A DNA stretch of 64,000 nucleotides from Gammaproteobacteria bacterium (GCA_038142325.1 JAYQJW010000002.1:288001-352000); one strand, 5' to 3'. Counted from the stretch's first letter, positions 24,243-34,300 are shown. Numbers and translations are program-made. Notes: generated by a model not told the origin, from the letters alone.

Positions 24243-24675
24243 ATGAGACAAATCTCCTTAATTGTGTTGATGACTTTCTTATTTGCATTAAATGCTTTTT
24301 CATATTCTCGTTATTCTAGTAATGAATCAAATCAAGAAAAAAAAAGTTTTCTTCATTACGCCGAGCAATGGCGAGGTTGTCACAAGTCCTTTTAGAGTTG
24401 AATTTGGGATAGAGTGGATGGAAATTGTTCCTGCTGGTGTAGATAAACCAATGTCTGGACACCACCATTTATTAATAAATCTTAAAAAACTTCCCAATAT
24501 GAAAATGCCAATTCCTGCAGATAAAAATCATTTACATTTTGGTAAAGGCCAAACTGAAACACAATTGGAATTGCCTAAAGGTAAGCATACATTACAACTC
24601 CTTCTGGGAAATCACCTTCATATACCTCATGATAAGCCACTCATATCTGAGAAGATTGAGATAACAGTAGAATAG
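24243..24675 (+). CDS. Secreted DUF4399-domain protein (frameshift in A-run near 24340)
   Basis: Signal peptide MRQISLIVLMTFLFALNAFS from ATG 24243, joining VFFITPSNG...SGHHHLLIN...HLHFGKGQTE...GKHTLQLLLGNHLH. Confidence 0.85.
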
Positions 24676-24985: not shown

Positions 24986-25132
24986 CTATTCCTTTAATCT
25001 TGGATAATCATTCTCTGTCATTTCCTCATCGCATGAAGGCTTGAGATAATCTTTGACAATTTGCTCAGCTTTTTCCTTTTCTTTGATTTTTTTATCTATC
25101 GATTCGATTTTATTGTCTTCAGACTGATTCAT
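24986..25132 (-). CDS. 48-aa charged hypothetical protein coupled to csoR
   Basis: ATG overlaps csoR TGA (ATGA); MNQSEDNKIESIDKKIKEKEKAEQIVKDYLKPSCDEEMTENDYPRLKE. Confidence 0.5.
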   Translation of the reverse strand: MNQSEDNKIESIDKKIKEKEKAEQIVKDYLKPSCDEEMTENDYPRLKE

Positions 25133-25392
25133 TTGTTAACTAGTTTAATTAATTCTTCTATTTTAGTGTTCAGCTCACTTTTATTTTTAAACGACTGCTT
25201 TATACAAGACTCAGTGTGTTTATTGAGTACTTTAGACTCAACTCTTACTAATGCAGATTTCACAGCTTTAATTTGATTCAGTATATCGATACAATATTTT
25301 CCATCTTCAATCATCTTAATTACGCCCCTTACTTGACCTTCAATTCTTTTAAGAGATGCTAATTGTTCTTTATGAGAAGGGTGATGTGACAT
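25129..25392 (-). CDS. csoR: CsoR/RcnR-family metal-sensing repressor
   Basis: MSHHPSH...LKRIEGQVRG...YCIDILNQ...KHTESC; C34-H59-C63 with Y33 (Cu(I)-CsoR fingerprint) plus N-terminal histidines. Confidence 0.88.
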   Translation of the reverse strand: MSHHPSHKEQLASLKRIEGQVRGVIKMIEDGKYCIDILNQIKAVKSALVRVESKVLNKHTESCIKQSFKNKSELNTKIEELIKLVNK

Positions 25393-25393
25393 T

Positions 25394-25771
25394 TTATAAA
25401 TAGATAGGGAGAATGTATGTGAAGAAGCTTGCAAAAATGAAAATAGCTGCTGAAATATTGTAAATTTTAGAAGTCCTTTTTCTAGTCTTAAGACATGCAT
25501 CTTTTAATAAAGGATCTACCGGACATGGAAGAAGTTCAGCTTTTTTTATCAAAACTCCAGCCACGATTAAAAGAATTAGAGTAAAGATAGATATATAGAC
25601 TTTGTATTGCGATATTACAATAAGTTGAGGAATGGTATTAACTATTGATACGAATGTCGCTCCTGCACCAAGCGTAACAAACAGTGCTGGTAAAGCGCAG
25701 CATATTAAGGTTGATGATGACGCTAACAGAGTGAATAAACCAAGCCTGGATGAGTTTTCTTTTAATTTCAT
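25394..25771 (-). CDS. MerT-like three-TM metal transporter
   Basis: Cys pair in TM1 (LICCALP), second Cys pair in loop (CPVDPLLKDAC), three hydrophobic segments. Confidence 0.7.
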   Translation of the reverse strand: MKLKENSSRLGLFTLLASSSTLICCALPALFVTLGAGATFVSIVNTIPQLIVISQYKVYISIFTLILLIVAGVLIKKAELLPCPVDPLLKDACLKTRKRTSKIYNISAAIFIFASFFTYILPIYL

Positions 25772-26172
25772 GTTATTTTTTTAAGAATCATACCTGTAGC
25801 TGATTGACCATTTGATAAAAAGATATTTTTAATTTCTCCAAAATCAACCTTCTTAGCATTATCATAAGCTACTAAAACCTTACCTTTCTCTAAGCTAACG
25901 AGCACTTTTTTTACTAACTTATCATCATAAAAGGTCTTCTCGATTCCTCTAGCACAAAAATCGCATACCATTCCATTTACATCTATGATTACTACTTGAG
26001 AAGTGCCTAAATCAGCAATAAACTCATTATATATTTTTTGATCAAGGACAGTCTTAGATCCATCTACGCCTGTCATATTATTATGTTTATGAGAACCATG
26101 ATCATGCGGGTTATCCATTGCATGCAAGCTACCAGTAAACAAAAATATAAAAGCTAAAAATATTTTATACAT
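25768..26172 (-). CDS. Periplasmic heavy-metal-associated (HMA, MerP/CopZ-like) protein with His-rich N-terminus
   Basis: Signal peptide ending SLHA, HDHGSHKH, GMVCDFC. Confidence 0.85.
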   Translation of the reverse strand: MYKIFLAFIFLFTGSLHAMDNPHDHGSHKHNNMTGVDGSKTVLDQKIYNEFIADLGTSQVVIIDVNGMVCDFCARGIEKTFYDDKLVKKVLVSLEKGKVLVAYDNAKKVDFGEIKNIFLSNGQSATGMILKKIT

Positions 26173-26186
26173 ATATATCTCCTAAA

Positions 26187-26792
26187 TTAAAATCTCTTCA
26201 TAAAGTGTAAGTCCCAATGGGAGTTTTTTGTACCCAATTCTAAAAGAAAATCACCTTTAAACAATTTCAAAAATGGGTAGGTATCCCATTCATTATTTAA
26301 TGTGTCTTTTTTAGTTTTAATCATAATCCATGTATGTAATTCATTATAATCTCCTAAATACGGTGCAGCGCCTAATTGCAATTCATATTCTGAGAAATCT
26401 TTCGATACTGTATGCTTATTAATAGCTGAAAATGAGGAGAAGTATCTTCTCGTCTCCCAATCACCATGTATTCCATAGTAAAAATCTTCACTTTTTTTAG
26501 TAGATATAGCACCTGTTAAATACAAATTTCTTTGTGATGATTTTGTATTCTTTCTATCTAAAAGATAAGTTGATCTAATATTAATATATTGATCATTAAA
26601 ATATCTGTCATTGATATATTCTGCACCAACTGAATAAAGATAAGATGGAGAGTAGTGATAGTAATAAGAGGACATCATAGAATTTGATTTATACATTAAT
26701 GTAGAGCCGCCAGACCATGAAATAGGTCGGGATTCTACAAAAGCTGTCGTAATTAAAAGTGACAACGTAATTAATAATTTTATTATACCCAT
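26187..26792 (-). CDS. Exported protein, putative outer membrane beta-barrel
   Basis: Signal peptide, aromatic-rich alternating strands (YYYHYSPS, YYGIHGDWETRRYF), C-terminal LHFMKRF. Confidence 0.6.
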   Translation of the reverse strand: MGIIKLLITLSLLITTAFVESRPISWSGGSTLMYKSNSMMSSYYYHYSPSYLYSVGAEYINDRYFNDQYINIRSTYLLDRKNTKSSQRNLYLTGAISTKKSEDFYYGIHGDWETRRYFSSFSAINKHTVSKDFSEYELQLGAAPYLGDYNELHTWIMIKTKKDTLNNEWDTYPFLKLFKGDFLLELGTKNSHWDLHFMKRF

Positions 26793-26873: not shown

Positions 26874-26888
26874 GAAATGGAGAAAGAT

Positions 26889-27257
26889 ATGAAAAATGTA
26901 ATTGTGTTAGCGCTTGCTTTATTTGTTGGACAAACATTAGCAGGAGATTATAACTATGTAGGTTCTGAACATGAAATGAAGTTAAAAGATGGTACATATG
27001 AAAAAACTAAGCAAAGAATTGTAATTGGACGAAGTATAAAGATAAATAATTATCAAACTTTTGCTGAAGTTGGATTTGGTGAGGATATAACTGAGGGGCA
27101 ATCAATCGGCCAAGGTGCTGATTATGATTATTATAAAGTTGGTTTTAAAACAAAATATTTTGATGCACTTGATGTAAAAGTTCATTTTGAAAGTAAGTTA
27201 AATACTTATGGCAAAGATGATAATGAGCTACAAATAAATACAAAGTATAAATTTTAA
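26889..27257 (+). CDS. Small exported beta-strand protein with outer-membrane beta-signal
   Basis: GGAG ribosome-binding site before ATG 26889; signal peptide MKNVIVLALALFVGQTLA; ends ELQINTKYKF. Confidence 0.75.
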   Translation: MKNVIVLALALFVGQTLAGDYNYVGSEHEMKLKDGTYEKTKQRIVIGRSIKINNYQTFAEVGFGEDITEGQSIGQGADYDYYKVGFKTKYFDALDVKVHFESKLNTYGKDDNELQINTKYKF

Positions 27258-27639: not shown

Positions 27640-27762
27640 CTAGTCTTTATAGTATGTATGTGCTGCTAGTAGTAACACCAAGAAACCTATCACGAACTGA
27701 TATACATAGAATGCGATTAAGCTAAATATCACTAAGATGACTGCCTTTTTTTCTCTGGACAT
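27640..27762 (-). CDS. 40-aa membrane peptide
   Basis: MSREKKAVILVIFSLIAFYVYQFVIGFLVLLLAAHTYYKD; start trimmed to avoid overlapping the leader ORF. Confidence 0.45.
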   Translation of the reverse strand: MSREKKAVILVIFSLIAFYVYQFVIGFLVLLLAAHTYYKD

Positions 27763-27780
27763 GTATTGTAGTATATACCT

Positions 27781-28008
27781 ATGTTTGAACAGCATGAACA
27801 CAAACATGATGACCACTGTCATCATGATGAGCATGAGATTGCTACAGATGTACAAGTCTGTCATCAATGCGGCAAAGTTCACTCAGTATTTTTTATTAAA
27901 GAACACCACTGTTTAGAAGAAACATTATCAACAAAATTAATAATTCTTCTTGAACAAACTCATAAAAACTTTTTTTCTACTCGAGCTCCACCATATTCAG
28001 TTAATTAA
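27781..28008 (+). CDS. His-rich CxxC/RAPP leader ORF (CruR/CutF/DUF2946-like putative arrest peptide)
   Basis: 75 aa, 12 His, CHQC at residues 27-30, RAPP at residues 68-71 (nt 27982-27993), 30 nt upstream of a TonB-dependent receptor. Confidence 0.75.
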   Translation: MFEQHEHKHDDHCHHDEHEIATDVQVCHQCGKVHSVFFIKEHHCLEETLSTKLIILLEQTHKNFFSTRAPPYSVN

Positions 28009-28022
28009 ACGTTTTAATTAAC
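28000..28022 (+). promoter_or_regulatory. Hairpin covering the leader stop codon, next to the receptor Shine-Dalgarno
   Basis: GTTAATTAAA-CGT-TTTAATTAAC; AAGGAG at 28028-28033. Confidence 0.55.
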
Positions 28023-28038
28023 CTAAAAAGGAGCAAAA

Positions 28039-30005
28039 ATGAACATTTTTAAAAATGCGCTATTTTTAGCGTTTGTCGTCATATCTCATGCGCATGCAGA
28101 GGATATGACACCTATTGAAATTCAGTCATCCATATTGTCTAACACGGTGACTGAAAATCAAAATACTGTAACCATAATACCCGGCGTAGATATTGAATCA
28201 TCACAATCTATCGGTACAAACTTGAGGAGTATTCCTGGAGTATCGAATTCTGATTATGGCACATCAGTTGGGCAGCCAGTGATTAGGGGACTTGGAGGTA
28301 GTAGAGTAAAAGTACTATCTAATAATAACTATGTAAGTGATTTGAGTTTTTTAGCGCTGATCATCCTGTTATGTTAAACATCAACCATGCTTCTCATATT
28401 GAGGTAATCAAAGGACCAACATCACTATTTAATCATAGCGGTAATACAGGTGGCGTAGTCAATGTAATTACAGATTCATCTACAAATAAGTTATATAGTG
28501 AGGAGAAAATAAGCTTTGGTAGGTCTTACGATACAGTAAGCGAAGGTTATTCAAATAATTTTCTTCTAAAAAAGAATATAAATGATCTTGCTGTGTATAT
28601 ATCTCATGATAAAAGGGATTATTTTAAATATGATTTATCTGAGGGATCATTTTTTGAAGAAGGAACAGAGGTGCGTACACTCAATAACTCTGATTATGCA
28701 GACAAGAGCTCAACAATCGGATTGTCTATGATTAAAGATTGGGGATATTTCAATTTTTCTTTTATTAATAATAAAGGAACATATGGAATAGCATATCATG
28801 CTGAAGAGGAGGAGGAAGAAGAGGAAGAAGGGGAACATAGAATTTACAGCGCTCATAAGTCGGACACATATAATTTTATTGGAAGATTAGATAATCTAAG
28901 CTTTGCTAATTCTCTTGATTTTTCTGTAAGCAACACTAACGCTCACATTAAAGAGCATGAAGAAGATGGAACTTTTAAGGTTATGAATAATAACTCTACT
29001 GCATATAATTTAAAGTTTAATTTTGACTCGGTAAATCAAGAACGAAGATTATTATTGAACTATGAACATGCTAAGTCACCATTTTCTAGTAATGCATACG
29101 TACCAAAATCTGAGAGTTTCAACAGATCTTTGGCTTATTATTCTGAAGCAAGCTTATCTAATATGAATATTGCATATGCTCTTAGGTATGATTTCAATGA
29201 AAGATTAACATCAACCAAGAATTATGAAGACTCTGCAATTAGTTTTTCAGCAAATACTGCTCAACAAATTAATGATAGCTTGTCTTACAACTTAGGCTTT
29301 TCTCATGTCTCTAGAAGTCCTAATATGGCTGAGCTATTTGCAGACGGTAAACACGGCCCTACAAATAGATATGAAAAGGGAAATAGTTCTCTTGAAAGAG
29401 AAGTATCAAACAATATCGATATAGGATTAAATTTCAAACATGGAATTTCTAGCATAGATTTATCCTTGTTTAGAAATGACATCAAAGACTTTATTTATTT
29501 ACGAGATTTAGGCACGACCTTATATGACGGAGAACACCAGGATGCTGATTGGTCTCAAAAAGATGCCGTATTTCAAGGTTATGAAGTTTCATATACAAGA
29601 CCATTTACTTTGGGGGATAGAGATTTGTATCTAACTCTTAGTAGAGATGATATTTCTGCAGTCTTTGATAATGATACGTACGTACCTAGAATACCAAGTG
29701 CTAAAAATACAATAGGTCTAACACTATTGGGTGACAAGAATGAGAAGTATTCAATGAGCTTGATTTATGCAGAAAGCCAAAAAGATTTCTCTTCTATTGA
29801 GACCTCGACAAATTCTTATGTAGATCTTGCAGTCAAGTATACTAATAAAATTAGATTGGGTGATAAACAAGATCTTAATGTCATGCTTTATGGTAATAAC
29901 TTATTGGACAAGACAAGAAGAAATCATGCATCTTTTGTAAAAGCACATGTTCCACTTCCAGCAACAAGCTTTGGTTTTAATGTTTCGTTAGATTATAAGT
30001 TTTAG
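28039..30005 (+). CDS. ZnuD-like TonB-dependent receptor (frameshift in T-run near 28350)
   Basis: Signal peptide; plug motifs IPGVSNSDYG...QPVIRGLGGSRVKVL, SADHPV, IEVIKGP; RSPNMAELFADGKH; NNLLDK...RNHASFVK; ends LDYKF. Confidence 0.88.
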
Positions 30006-30468: not shown

Positions 30469-30645
30469 TTATTTCTTTATTTTTTTCGTACCACCGTATT
30501 GGTAATTTGATGAAAACTTAATTTTTATCTCAGCGAGACACTTTTGGCATAAAAATACCCATTCCTTTTTATTATCATATCTACATCTAAATAGTGCTGT
30601 AGAGCTCTGCGAGCAGTGATGACACACTTTATTGCCTTTCACCAT
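30469..30645 (-). CDS. 58-aa putative zinc-ribbon protein
   Basis: Hand-translated MVKGNKVCHHCSQSSTALFRCRYDNKKEWVFLCQKCLAEIKIKFSSNYQYGGTKKIKK; two CxxC. Confidence 0.65.
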   Translation of the reverse strand: MVKGNKVCHHCSQSSTALFRCRYDNKKEWVFLCQKCLAEIKIKFSSNYQYGGTKKIKK

Positions 30646-30963: not shown

Positions 30964-31086
30964 ATGTTTGATTACGCACCTTATATATTCTGGGCATACT
31001 TTTTAGTTCTAGTACCAATGGTATTAGTAGTATTTATTTTAATATATAAAGGCAGACAGATAAAAAAACAAATTTCGAATAAATAA
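30964..31086 (+). CDS. ccmD: Heme exporter protein CcmD
   Basis: MFDYAPYIFWAYFLVLVPMVLVVFILIYKGRQIKKQISNK: YxxYxWxAY, TM, basic tail; directly before ccmE. Confidence 0.7.
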   Translation: MFDYAPYIFWAYFLVLVPMVLVVFILIYKGRQIKKQISNK

Positions 31087-31094
31087 GGAATCCC

Positions 31095-31550
31095 ATGAAA
31101 AAAAGATCAGCTAGAATCTACTATGTTTCTTTCTTGCTCATAATATTAGGTTTTGTTTTGTATTTATTTATAAATACATTTAATGATAATTTGCTCTATT
31201 ATCGCAGTCCTACTCAACTGGTAAATGGCAATTTCCCTGATAACTATATATTCAGAATAGGAGGTATGGTCGAAGAGGGTTCTTTGATAAGAGAAAGCGG
31301 CACTAAGAAAGTATCTTTCAATGTTACAGATTTTGATAATAAGGTTACAGTTAAATATGATGGAATATTACCTGATTTGTTTAGAGAAGGTCAGGGTGTT
31401 GTTATAAGAGGGCATCTAGAAAAAGATTATTTCGTAGCTGAAGAGGTTTTAGCTAAACATGATGAAACATACATGCCTCCTGAAGTACAAGAATCTCTTG
31501 GTTTGAGTGAAGAGAGTAAATCTAAGACGATTAAAAGTATTAAAGAATGA
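31095..31550 (+). CDS. ccmE: Cytochrome c maturation heme chaperone CcmE
   Basis: RIGGMV, GILPDLFREGQGVV, LAKHDETYMPPEV. Confidence 0.96.
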   Translation: MKKRSARIYYVSFLLIILGFVLYLFINTFNDNLLYYRSPTQLVNGNFPDNYIFRIGGMVEEGSLIRESGTKKVSFNVTDFDNKVTVKYDGILPDLFREGQGVVIRGHLEKDYFVAEEVLAKHDETYMPPEVQESLGLSEESKSKTIKSIKE

Positions 31551-33436
31551 TTATAGATATTGGTTATATTGGTTATTTTCTTCTTTTGATAGGATTAATG
31601 AACTGCATCATTCTTTTGACTCCTAAGCTTGTTAGTGATTTAAATATTTCTAGTGAAATATTATTTTCTGCATCTAAAGCGCATTTTCCTATAATATTAT
31701 TATCTTTTTTATGTCTGATTGTTACATTTGTTGGAGAAGACTATTCGCTAGACTATGTAGCTAAGAATTCAAATTCGAATTTACCCTTGATATATAAGAT
31801 CTCAGCTGCATGGGCAGGTCACGAAGGGTCAATGCTCTTATGGTGTGTTGTCTCAAGTTTTTGGATGTTTCTTGCAAGCTATTATAGTAAAAACCTCTCT
31901 AAGAGTTTAAGAGTTAATTTCTTAGCTATTATGGGCTTACTTAATCTTGGCTTTTTACTTTTTGTTGTTGCTACATCAAATCCATTTGATAGAAATATGA
32001 CTGTTCCTTTGGATGGTAATGACCTTAACCCTCTTCTTCAAGATTTTGGATTAATAGTTCATCCGCCTATGCTTTATATGGGGTATGTTGGATTGTCTGT
32101 TGTCTTTTCTTTTGCAATCGCATGCTGTTTCGAAGATGATTTCAAAAAAGAGTGGGCGTAATGGATTAGACCTTGGATACTTGCTTCTTGGGCATTTTTA
32201 ACACTTGGAATTTCCTTAGGGAGTTGGTGGGCTTACTATGAACTTGGCTGGGGAGGCTGGTGGTTTTGGGATCCTGTTGAAAACGCTTCATTTATGCCAT
32301 GGTTGATGGCAACAGCGCTACTTCACTCGGTTATCGCTACCAGTGAAAAAGGAATCTTTAAAAGTTGGACAATATTGTTATCTATATTTACTTTTTCACT
32401 AAGTTTGCTTGGTACTTTCCTGGTCAGATCGGGTATTTTAATTTCAGTTCACTCATTTGCAAGCGATCCGTCCAGAGGGGTTTTTATCTTACTCATGTTA
32501 ATTGCTTTGATAGGAGGGGGGTTGCTAGCTTATGCCTTGAATTCATACAAGTTCAAAGACGAAAATGAAGTGAAGCTTTTTTCTAAGGAGGGTTTTTTCC
32601 TGCTAAATAATATACTTTTAGTGACCGCAACTTTTACAATCTTGCTAGGGACAATGTATCCACTATTTCTTGATATTTTAGGGCTGGAGAAAATATCTGT
32701 TGGAGTACCATATTATAACGCGGTTTTTGTTCCTTTAATGATTCCTCTAATATTACTTGTTGGATATATACCTATTCTCTTATCAAGACTATCAAAAAAT
32801 AAACAACTAATTCAACTTGTAGCAATACTCATAATCAGCATATTTTTATCTTTAATTTATAATGTTAATACTATTTTATTTTTTATAGGTATATTCTCTG
32901 CTACATGGATAGCTGGCAATATTTTATTTGATTCATTTAAATCATATGACAACAAAATAATGTTTAGAAATAGGATAGGAATGTATTTTGCTCATTTTGG
33001 ATTGGCTGTCTTCATCGTTGGTGCAAGCGTATCTGAAAACATGAAGATTGAAAAAGAATTTACGCTTGATATTGGACAATCTAAACAAGTAGGTTTATTT
33101 AATTATAAATTTGAAAAGCTTAACGAATATAAATCAATGAATTATGATGCTTTAATAGCCTCTATCATTGTGTCAAAAGACGATCAATTCATAACTGAAA
33201 TTAATCCAGAAAAAAGGCTTTATCATTCCAGTGAATCACCAATGACCGAAGCTGGTATTAATGGTCGATTAGATAGAGACCTTTATGTTTCGTTGGGTAA
33301 CATGGTTTCAGAGAATAAGTGGTCAATTCGAGTTTATGATAAACCTCTAATACGGCTAATATGGATTGGAACAATTTTTATGATTCTTGGCGCAATCATT
33401 AGTATTAGATTTAGAAGATCACGACATTATGAATAG
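31547..33436 (+). CDS. ccmF: Heme lyase CcmF (in-frame TAA at 32159-32161)
   Basis: WAGHEGSMLLW, HPPMLYMGY, then in frame WIRPW...WAYYELGWGGWWFWDPVENASFMPW, SVHSFA. Confidence 0.95.
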
Positions 33437-33944
33437 AAGCTTGTTAATTTATAGCTCTATCTTTATTTTAGTAAGCCTTTTTCTTTTTAAAGGCCTCTAT
33501 TATGATCCTAAAAAAATACAATCGCCATTGATAGGCAAAACATTTCCTAATTTTGAGTTATATGATTTAGATAATAATACACTCATCAATAATAATAATT
33601 TTTTAAGTAAGAAAACTATTGTAAATGTTTGGGCTAGTTGGTGTCTTGAATGTGAAAGAGAGCACTCATATTTAATAAATTTATCTAAAAATAAAGAAAT
33701 AGATCTAATTGGAATAAATTATAAAGATAATCCTACCGATGCACTAGCTTGGCTAAGCATGAGAGGCAATCCGTATCGTATGATTATTAAAGATCAACAA
33801 GGAGATCTATCCTTAGATCTAGGAGTGTATGGTGTACCCGAGACATATATTCTTGATGAGAATCAAGTTATTCTATATAAACATATAGGTCCAATTAATA
33901 ATCAAATAATTCAAAAAGAAATGATGCCTTTATTGAGATACTAA
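33429..33944 (+). CDS. ccmG: Thiol:disulfide interchange protein CcmG/DsbE
   Basis: NVWASWCLEC, GINYKD, LGVYGVPETY. Confidence 0.93.
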   Translation: MNRSLLIYSSIFILVSLFLFKGLYYDPKKIQSPLIGKTFPNFELYDLDNNTLINNNNFLSKKTIVNVWASWCLECEREHSYLINLSKNKEIDLIGINYKDNPTDALAWLSMRGNPYRMIIKDQQGDLSLDLGVYGVPETYILDENQVILYKHIGPINNQIIQKEMMPLLRY

Positions 33945-33946
33945 AA

Positions 33947-34300
33947 GTGAAAAGAATAAGTTTATTCATAGCTCTCTTATTTACCTTAAATATATCTTTT
34001 GCAGATGACATTGATAAGCAATATTCAAATTTAATTGAAGAGTTAAGATGTATGGTATGTCAGAATCAAAATCTTGCTGAATCAGAAGCTCCATTAGCAG
34101 TAGACATGAAAGAAAAAATAAAAGAGATGTTAAGATCTGGAAAAAATGAGGATGAAATAAAAATGTTTTTGTCTGACAGATACAGTTCCTATATTTTATA
34201 TGAGCCGCCTGTAAACAAACAAAATATAATATTATGGTTTGGTCCGTTTGTATTCATTATACTCATAGGCTTTTTTCTGTTTAAAAGATATTTAAAATGA
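33947..34300 (+). CDS. ccmH: Cytochrome c biogenesis protein CcmH
   Basis: ELRCMVCQNQNLAES, RYSSYILYEPP. Confidence 0.93.
   Translation: MKRISLFIALLFTLNISFADDIDKQYSNLIEELRCMVCQNQNLAESEAPLAVDMKEKIKEMLRSGKNEDEIKMFLSDRYSSYILYEPPVNKQNIILWFGPFVFIILIGFFLFKRYLK

Follow-up and report, generated by a model that had tools for sequence, protein, structure and literature searches.

The window analysed here, a stretch of 64,000 nucleotides (nt) from the genome of a Gammaproteobacteria bacterium (GCA_038142325.1, JAYQJW010000002.1:288001-352000), contains a short open reading frame (ORF) rich in His and Cys codons, positioned just upstream of a gene encoding a ZnuD-like TonB-dependent receptor. We propose that this ORF is a regulatory leader, which acts as a cytoplasmic metal-sensing ribosome-arrest switch for the receptor, and we assign a probability of about 0.6 to this reading, all mechanistic steps of which are inferred. 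The same interpretation had been put forward in the original prediction, made from the window alone, and the comparative evidence described below supports it. The coordinates of the individual features are collected in Table 1.

The translation of the leader contains 12 His residues, seven of them among the first 18, and 4 Cys residues; a CHQC motif occupies residues 27-30 and an RAPP motif residues 68-71. The 75-codon ORF with its His-rich start, CHQC and RAPP is present as the original prediction described it, with the correction that the gap between CxxC and RAPP, given there as about 38 residues, amounts to 37 intervening residues. A six-frame search of 61 related genomes revealed copies at E <= 5.5e-8 in 10 of the 13 genomes of the window's genus (its own genome, of 1.1 Mb and 31.8% G+C, included), a word-indexed protein search yielded 31 homologous proteins of 57-95 amino acids (aa), and a profile search of 1.84 billion representatives reported 10 matches at E <= 0.001, among them a 1454-aa repeat protein (P0034) that we judged spurious. 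Scans of genome and metagenome contigs contributed 5 and 47 further loci, respectively. Altogether 62 loci were examined, of which 61 encode a complete leader (in L102 it runs off the contig), corresponding to 49 different proteins with lengths of 74-88 aa; a Thermoplasmata contig (L026; 43% identity over 44 residues) was excluded and is not part of the counts. Five weak matches from outside the genus (E 0.019-0.27; L011, L012, L013, L016 and L018) were checked and turned out to be unrelated (a phosphoesterase-like protein, an adenylate kinase, a short open frame). The source records of the related loci are uncultured marine Gammaproteobacteria, and the small number of matches among 1.84 billion representatives indicates that the family is small and restricted to one lineage. 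One 5.8-kb contig titled as a metagenome-assembled genome of Flavobacteriales (L021, PBVH01000005.1) carries a leader and receptor copy that is 96% identical; it is probably mis-binned, since all remaining records are gammaproteobacterial.

In the 48 distinct DNA sequences spanning CxxC to RxPP, residues C27, C30, G31, H34, I39, H42, C44, R68, P70 and P71 are invariant, while their codons vary synonymously (four codons for G31, four for R68, three each for P70 and P71, and six for the near-invariant L49); a protein from the word-indexed search set (P0003) is an exception, with Ser at position 44. Residues 50-66 diverge freely in sequence across the family. The region that precedes CxxC comprises 23-38 aa, with 2-12 His, 0-3 Cys and 5-8 Asp+Glu residues. 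Thus, the leader ORF is a real gene under selection at the protein level. All 61 complete loci head the same receptor family on the same strand, and the conservation of a His/CxxC/RAPP ORF upstream of homologous receptors, which the original prediction had named as a check, is found at every one of them.

The R-x-P-P motif occurs at the C-terminus in 61/61 loci and is followed by a tail of only 2-6 residues. Its variable position, residue 69, is Ala in 36 loci, Asp in 16, Gly in 8 and Ser in one. As described by Fujiwara et al. (2025, PMC12992588), the arrest is supported or enhanced by Gly at this place and partly kept with Ser, Asp or Pro; all residues used by the family therefore belong to the published arrest-permissive set, and the motif fits the arrest data. 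In the RAPP arrest described by Morici et al. (2024, PMC10951233), Arg-Ala-Pro-tRNA is located in the P site and the A site contains Pro-tRNA. Four-residue motifs of the RAPP type are reported to belong to those that bacterial proteomes avoid most strongly (Fujiwara et al. 2025, PMC12992588). RAPP, RGPP, RDPP and RSPP have no occurrence in the 937 ORFs of at least 150 aa of this genome, which by itself is weak evidence, because only about 2.4 would be expected in total.

The spacer between CxxC and RxPP has exactly 37 residues in 61/61 loci, and the alignment is gap-free in this region. This constancy can be compared with the artificial fusion of the 29-aa ADR1a zinc finger to the SecM arrest peptide, in which Nilsson et al. 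(2015, PMC4571824) reported a Zn-dependent stall release that peaks sharply when the distance to the critical Pro is 24-26 residues, the domain folding inside the exit tunnel. With P71 in the A site, the end of the leader's Cys/His core would be 22 (L49) to 27 (C44) residues away, and this agreement of distances could explain the invariant spacer. The original prediction, which let the His/Cys domain just clear the tunnel, needs amendment in this respect: at a distance of 22-27 residues from the A-site Pro, the core would still be within the distal tunnel or the vestibule. The two systems are alike in having a small Cys/His domain at a similar distance from the critical Pro, and they differ in that ADR1a-SecM is an artificial construct with the SecM RAGP motif, whereas the leader is natural and conserved, with its metal binding and folding predicted. 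The AlphaFold2 model of the leader (mean pLDDT 63.4) shows a β-hairpin (residues 24-35) with a CxxC knuckle and a helix (residues 36-62) that carries H42 and C44. A feature search of a protein atlas, which provides leads only, listed uncharacterised clusters first, a CzcI cluster at rank 10, and a cluster with 25% DUF2946 members at rank 17 (score 0.91).

The leader family lacks a recognizable export signal. The best 15-aa hydropathy window, calculated over whole stop-to-stop frames, has a median of 0.95, versus 2.40 in 25 control proteins of the DUF2946 family (discussed below), and no conserved N-terminal hydrophobic, signal or transmembrane segment was found in hydropathy windows along the full open frames, in agreement with the lack of a signal peptide that the original prediction had noted. 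In L010 and L105 the frame continues upstream into a hydrophobic stretch, but a start there was rejected: in L009, a close relative, the frame is interrupted, and in L096 and L104 the stretch is not hydrophobic. In the window itself the in-frame TAG at 27769-27771, already pointed out in the original prediction, shuts the reading frame four codons upstream of the ATG. As N-terminal extension is excluded by the in-frame stop and by the non-conserved upstream frames, polishing of the sequence will not restore a signal peptide.

No SD-like (Shine-Dalgarno-like) tetramer was found before the leader start in the window, and in the whole family only one of the 49 distinct proteins has one. The hexamer TAGTAT lies 6 nt before the ATG, as originally described. 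A TAnnAT box ending 5-10 nt before the start is present in 41 of the 43 distinct upstream regions versus 116 of 887 control ORFs (13%), and a TG-extended -10-like box in 30/43 versus 25/887 (2.8%), counts that have to be read with the leader start-choice rule in mind, which favoured -10-like boxes. The leader mRNA is thus probably leaderless or nearly so. No convincing Fur or Zur box was seen by eye at the leader promoter, where no formal search was made. The putative promoter must overlap the divergently oriented gene for a hydrophobic membrane peptide, since that gene starts only 19 nt from the leader start; its product matches no family. A longer minus-strand ORF of 80 aa, which would overlap the leader (27640-27882), was rejected, for it is conserved as a gene in its last 40 codons only. 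In addition, a 9-bp palindrome at 27805-27826, listed by the scan as a terminator-like element of the minus strand, is built from the His, Asp and Cys codons of the leader tail and is probably a by-product of CAT/GAT/GAC codon usage.

The junction between the leader and the receptor gene is 27-41 nt long at all 61 loci, which represent 39 distinct junction sequences, and measures 30 nt in the window. In the window, the leader stop codon TAA (28006-28008) lies within the 5' arm of a 10-bp hairpin, in which 28000-28009 pairs with 28013-28022 across a 3-nt loop, as the original prediction had it. All pairs of this hairpin but one are A-T, and the receptor's SD is located outside it: the AAGGAG that had been noticed beside the hairpin is present at 28028-28033, yet its pairing involves an outer 5-bp helix, GCUCC:GGAGC, rather than the hairpin, whose predicted role is to juxtapose the two strands of that helix. 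The 66-nt junction folds with -12.3 kcal/mol (z = -4.06 against shuffled sequences) and a 101-nt segment with -13 kcal/mol (z = -2.0). The SD is paired with an upstream partner in the minimum-energy fold of 39/39 distinct junctions, and in 33 of them a 5-8-nt complement of the SD begins 0-1 nt after the second Pro codon. The forms of the putative anti-SD and the SD vary by clade (CUUCU/AGGAG, CUCCU/AGGAG, CUCUC/GAGAG); in the 5 junctions of the window's clade, GGAGC has its partner GCUCC within the Ala-Pro codons, and one further junction (L079) uses the Pro codons. A ribosome covers about 12-13 nt beyond the first base of the P-site codon, so that with the stall geometry given above all anti-SD positions would fall inside the stalled ribosome. 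When a ribosome reaching through +13 was modelled by forcing that stretch to be unpaired, the SD was freed in 31/39 junctions. We rejected two other readings of the 23-bp palindrome that forms the hairpin: as a repressor operator, for other clades have different hairpins with the same geometry, and as an intrinsic terminator, because A residues rather than U residues come after it. In a sister genus, the leader-receptor spacer of one locus (L132) is 88 nt long (35-43 nt in the others) and includes a 12-bp G+C-containing palindrome, which may be an extra RNA hairpin or an operator.

The design that emerges is best read as a combination of the logic of CruR with the SD masking of CutF. CruR (Bp2923, DUF2946/PF11162) precedes the gene of the TonB transporter BfrG in Bordetella pertussis, where metal is proposed to relieve a RAPP stall; its signal peptide is reported to be dispensable and cytoplasmic copper sensing has been proposed, while its output is Rho-dependent, the cruR-bfrG gap is 162 nt and the CxxC-RAPP spacer 45 residues (Roy et al. 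2022, PMC9426467). CutF precedes cutO in Rhodobacter capsulatus, where a stem-loop shields the next SD and is opened by the ribosome on the leader; according to Ozturk et al. (2023, PMC9973294), CutF depends on its Sec signal peptide, senses periplasmic copper, and copper promotes the stall, so that the detoxification gene is turned on. For the window we propose that a -10-type promoter starts transcription at the leader ATG or right beside it, which would spare the leader an SD of its own. The ribosome stalled at R-x-P-P would cover the stretch that otherwise pairs with the receptor SD, and the receptor would be translated as long as the stall lasts. At this stage the Cys/His core would be located in the distal exit tunnel or vestibule and the His-rich tail would already be outside the ribosome. 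Sufficient metal in the cytoplasm would then cause the core to fold around it and to pull the nascent chain, releasing the arrest; termination would follow four codons on, the SD-masking structure would re-form and receptor synthesis would drop. The proposed switch includes no export step.

The receptor gene is split in the assembly into an ORF for the Plug domain (28039-28377) and an ORF for the barrel (28371-30005), the cause being a run of six T residues (28347-28352) just 5' of the codons for the conserved Ala-Asp-His of the plug; four close relatives have seven T residues and an intact gene. The shorter run is either an assembly error or a mark of a real pseudogene, and an error is plausible in the light of the second TonB receptor of this genome, which is split as well. 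In all four clades tested, the best NCBIfam model is ZnuD (NF038289), with 187-220 bits for the four intact relatives and 145 + 37 bits for the two fragments of the window; as the curated cut-off of the model is 950 bits, the receptor is to be called ZnuD-like rather than a member of that family. The best solved structure is also ZnuD (4rdr). The high-affinity zinc ligands of ZnuD are Asp99, His100, Glu340 and His499 (Calmettes et al. 2015, PMC4557270). In the phmmer alignment with 4rdr_A, D113-H114 and H513 of the chain stand opposite a D-H and a K-H of the receptor, respectively, while the Glu340 region is outside the alignment; with an offset of 14, these three residues appear to correspond to the published ligands D99, H100 and H499. 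Provided that the arrest mechanism is correct, we lean towards Zn2+ as the sensed metal, because ZnuD is both the best family and the best structure and three zinc ligands align.

The role of copper, moreover, seems to be already filled in this genome, because a separate exported RAPP leader precedes a copper-type receptor on another contig (L109, 1653-3846). This second leader has 130 aa, an N-terminal hydrophobic signal, a CxCC motif, a 45-residue spacer and RAPP followed by a tail of 2 residues. It ends 36 nt 5' of the copper-type TonB receptor gene (TIGR01778, 216 + 67 bits, itself split in two ORFs), in a locus flanked by tonB-exbD-exbD and exbB, and its Pro codons CCUCCAG are complementary over 7 bp to the SD CUGGAGG (-18.8 kcal/mol, z = -4.3). 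No similarity between it and the leader in the window was detectable.

We consider it rather unlikely that the same arrest leader responds to copper or to yet another ligand (Co, Ni, haem) instead of zinc. CxxC is the copper motif of CruR (PMC9426467) and CutF is likewise reported as a copper leader with a Cys motif (PMC9973294); ZnuD-type receptors are related to haem receptors, which provide the second-best NCBIfam matches here. The gene neighborhood, too, speaks against zinc, as it points to copper or iron: a CsoR/RicR-type repressor, a MerT-like protein and a periplasmic HMA protein are encoded nearby in the window, and a redoxin and a P19-type Fe2+ transport protein in other clades. On the other hand, the receptor scores 187-220 bits with the ZnuD model versus 37-47 bits with the copper-receptor model, three of the four zinc ligands of ZnuD have aligned counterparts, and the genome already possesses the exported RAPP leader before a copper-type receptor. 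Furthermore, three Cys and two His residues combined with a poly-His tail suit Zn, Co or Ni, which counts against copper.

A stronger version of the proposed switch, which we put forward only tentatively, is that the leader is a natural cytoplasmic force sensor, whose zinc-finger-like core folds on Zn2+ in the distal tunnel and, set at the proper distance by the 37-residue ruler, pulls the R-x-P-P arrest open. If this is true, the ribosome serves as a zinc gauge for an outer-membrane importer without any membrane or translocon step, and the leader is the natural counterpart of ADR1a-SecM, which would show how leaders of the CruR type read metals.

The strong conservation of the Cys/His core and the His-rich tail would also be compatible with a stable small cytoplasmic metal-binding buffer or chaperone, in which RxPP is merely a pause that aids translational coupling, as the distance of 27-41 nt between the stop and the receptor start would allow. 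We regard this as improbable, since it leaves unexplained the invariant 37-residue ruler over a freely varying linker, the restriction of position 69 to arrest-permissive residues and the placement of the anti-SD at or after the Pro-Pro codons, and since RAPP-like motifs are reported to be strongly avoided in ordinary proteins (PMC12992588).

Several observations weigh against the leader as an arrest switch with a masked SD. With respect to the arrest, RDPP is described as only partly permissive in ApdA and in ApdP (Fujiwara et al. 2025, PMC12992588), and the tail of the RDPP clade is poor in His (2-5 residues). With respect to the sensor core, the confidence of the AlphaFold2 model is low, a Foldseek search with this model returned nothing significant (best E 1.2, with small zinc fingers at the top of the list), and a profile search of the PDB had a best E of 0.42, also not significant, with zinc-ribbon ribosomal proteins on top. 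With respect to the promoter, a generic scan for sigma-70 -35/-10 pairs reported 2 sites versus 3.9 expected, the TAGTAT box not being among them, and the genome contains two genes of the Fur family, so that ordinary transcriptional control is also possible. With respect to the RNA, an SD is paired likewise in 23 of 55 genes of this genome with a GGAG-type SD (42%), because of which the pairing in all 39 junctions is weak evidence on its own, and the chance of finding an equal complement in control windows of the same leaders is 0-26% (median about 10%). The window's clade lacks an anti-SD after Pro-Pro, its GCUCC:GGAGC match has a chance level of 9-26%, and under the modelled ribosome it keeps a 3-bp CCU:AGG helix on part of the SD, the energy changing from -12.3 to -3.8 kcal/mol. 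Finally, when the 39 junctions were aligned with MAFFT, RNAalifold found no consensus pair, since the register of the helices differs from clade to clade; the co-variation of SD and anti-SD is based on folds of the individual sequences and on the count of complementary segments. Taken together, the evidence for RNA masking is moderate at the level of the family and weak at the locus in the window itself.

The frequent pairing of SDs in this genome (23/55), the RNAalifold result and the dependence of CruR on Rho (PMC9426467) would agree with a stall that acts on transcription or on mRNA stability, with the hairpin being incidental. We find this quite improbable: the spacer of just 27-41 nt, compared with 162 nt in cruR-bfrG, is A/U-rich and offers no room for a rut site, the anti-SD changes along with the SD (CUCUC/GAGAG versus CUUCU/AGGAG), and the second leader of the genome has the 7-bp match between Pro codons and SD (z = -4.3). 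A reversed logic, with metal prolonging the stall and turning the receptor on, would follow the CutF model, in which copper causes the arrest and the stem-loop opens (PMC9973294), but it is highly improbable for an uptake-type receptor, as an importer switched on amid plentiful metal would be harmful, and as CruR, which also precedes a TonB receptor, is reported to be relieved by metal (PMC9426467).

As regards the relationship of the proposed arrest leader to known families, it has no Pfam match at E <= 0.1 and no NCBIfam match, and PF11162 (DUF2946) has no match in a six-frame translation of the complete genome. The latter negative result carries little weight, because PF11162 appears insensitive in this lineage: the canonical second leader is also unmatched. 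When 34 family members were compared with 25 DUF2946 proteins by hhalign, the alignment was confined to 18 C-terminal columns (probability 10.9%). These DUF2946 controls come from 30 loci of a search of 401 genomes, from which four loci without an ORF by our rule and one spurious locus were removed; they have N-terminal membrane segments, and in 23/25 the spacer is 43-47 residues long. The window's family shares with DUF2946 the CxxC motif (C27 and C30 being invariant), the RxPP near the C-terminus, the position at the head of a metal operon on the same strand and, with many members, a His-rich stretch before CxxC. It differs in the spacing, which is fixed here too, but at 37 rather than about 45 residues, in the missing N-terminal signal or anchor, which is present as an export signal in more than 95% of DUF2946 proteins, and in the missing profile match.

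The resemblance to CruR concerns the small ORF on the same strand before a TonB receptor, with CxxC and with RAPP a few residues from the stop, and the metal that is proposed to relieve the stall and to turn the importer off. However, the family has a 37- instead of a 45-residue spacer, the additional invariant residues H34, H42 and C44, a gap of 27-41 nt with putative SD masking instead of 162 nt with Rho, a receptor of the ZnuD type, a probably leaderless start and a profile similarity limited to the RAPP tail. CutF is similar in its Cys motif, Pro-rich C-terminus and SD-shielding stem-loop, and different in its required Sec signal, its CxxxC motif, its detoxification target and the direction of the response, metal turning the gene on. 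ApdA, ApdP and the surveyed RAPP/RGPP upstream ORFs (PMC12992588, PMC10951233) also have R-x-P-P near the C-terminus before a regulated gene, but ApdA and ApdP monitor protein export. RAPP/RGPP upstream ORFs are reported to be enriched before TonB receptors, nearly all of them with signal sequences (PMC12992588). In the literature searched we found no arrest leader linked to zinc or to ZnuD, although the supplementary tables of these papers may list such cases. The translocon-independent variant envisaged in the original prediction holds insofar as the family is signal-less, whereas the principle is not new, the CruR signal peptide being dispensable (PMC9426467). What appears to be new, judging from the comparisons made, is an entire family without an export signal, with its own sensor core, 37-residue ruler, probable leaderless start and ZnuD-type target, and the coexistence of such a leader with a canonical copper-type system in one genome.

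Orthologs of the receptor (45-64% identity) are present in 28 of the 61 related genomes. We examined 14 such loci, leaving aside L134-L136 and L138 (partial receptor) and L128 (no upstream DNA). At 13 of them (L116, L121-L127, L129-L133; five sister genera and the window's own genus) the receptor gene is preceded by a different leader, in which a His-rich stretch is followed by CxxC or CxCxxC and then by R[AS]PP, with a spacer of 43-45 residues, a tail of 1-4 residues and a gap of 35-88 nt to the receptor; the 14th locus encodes a receptor of another family (25% identity) without a leader. Eight of the 13 sister leaders, including L116 from the window's own genus, have an N-terminal membrane segment, and five have none, possessing instead a central hydrophobic stretch and CxCxxC. 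The two types are homologous to each other (hhalign probability 96.6%), show no detectable relation to DUF2946 (about 5%; the best PF11162 score among the 13 is 14.8 bits, for one leader), and match the window's family in the tail only (8-69%). For L116 the alignment with the window's family extends over the segment between CxxC and RAPP, both included (hhalign 66.9%, E 5e-5; BLASTP against one member, E 0.011). Thus, three leader architectures exist within one receptor lineage. The presence of membrane-anchored leaders before orthologous receptors indicates that the leader in the window is a derived variant and not a separate invention of the principle, and we infer that the signal-less leader with the 37-residue spacer descends from a membrane-anchored CruR-like leader by remodelling.

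Table 1. Positions of the leader, the junction, the receptor gene and the divergent gene in the window
Feature	Position	Strand	Basis or remark
Divergent gene for a 40-aa hydrophobic membrane peptide	27640-27762	-	conserved in L002, L004, L005
-10-like hexamer TAGTAT, putative promoter, 6 nt 5' of the leader ATG	27769-27774	+	
Leader ORF, 75 aa, His/Cys-rich, no signal, RAPP + 4 C-terminal residues	27781-28008	+	homology, codon variation
N-terminal tail, acidic and His-rich, residues 1-26, 7 His	27781-27858	+	composition kept, sequence variable
Cys/His core, residues 27-49, candidate metal-binding mini-domain (C27, C30, H34, H42, C44)	27859-27927	+	
Spacer CxxC to RxPP, 37 residues, length fixed; residues 50-66 sequence-variable	27871-27981	+	
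RAPP codons CGA GCT CCA CCA, predicted ribosome-arrest site	27982-27993	+	
Predicted anti-SD of the window's clade, GCUCC, in Ala-Pro codons	27985-27989	+	minimum-energy folds
10-bp hairpin carrying the leader stop, predicted to juxtapose anti-SD and SD	28000-28022	+	fold
Receptor SD core GGAGC, within AAGGAGC (28028-28034)	28030-28034	+	sequence
ZnuD-like TonB-dependent receptor, presumed regulated gene	28039-30005	+	plug and barrel domains

Upstream of these features, at 25129-26172 on the minus strand, the window encodes the CsoR/RicR-type repressor, the MerT-like membrane protein and the HMA protein (CopZ/MerP-like, with a His-rich N-terminus), a cluster that lies next to the leader and receptor genes in several clades; the edge of this metal-gene cluster is marked by a DUF4399 protein (24292-24675, plus strand), which has a signal peptide. 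Two further genes recur beside the locus in relatives: one for a conserved secreted protein of 201 aa without a family match (26187-26792, minus strand) and one for a small β-barrel of 126 aa (26877-27257, plus strand), which matches the cyanophage outer-membrane-protein domain PF24653. Directly 3' of the receptor gene there is a gene for a 58-aa protein (30469-30645, minus strand) with two CxxC pairs, zinc-ribbon-like and with weak Pfam matches, followed by cytochrome c maturation genes (about 30964-34300).

Metal-sensing arrest leaders, such as CruR and CutF, have been described only recently, and the questions at issue are how the nascent chain reads the metal and what role export plays in it. 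Being short, soluble and free of export, with a strictly kept ruler and a well-defined ligand set, the family described here could provide a simple model for the release of arrest by metal-induced folding. Our analysis suggests that leaders of such receptors change quickly, three architectures being found on orthologous receptors; a survey filtered for signal peptides, or one based on the DUF2946 profile, would overlook all of them. A further suggestion is that marine bacteria with very small genomes control a zinc-type importer by translation.

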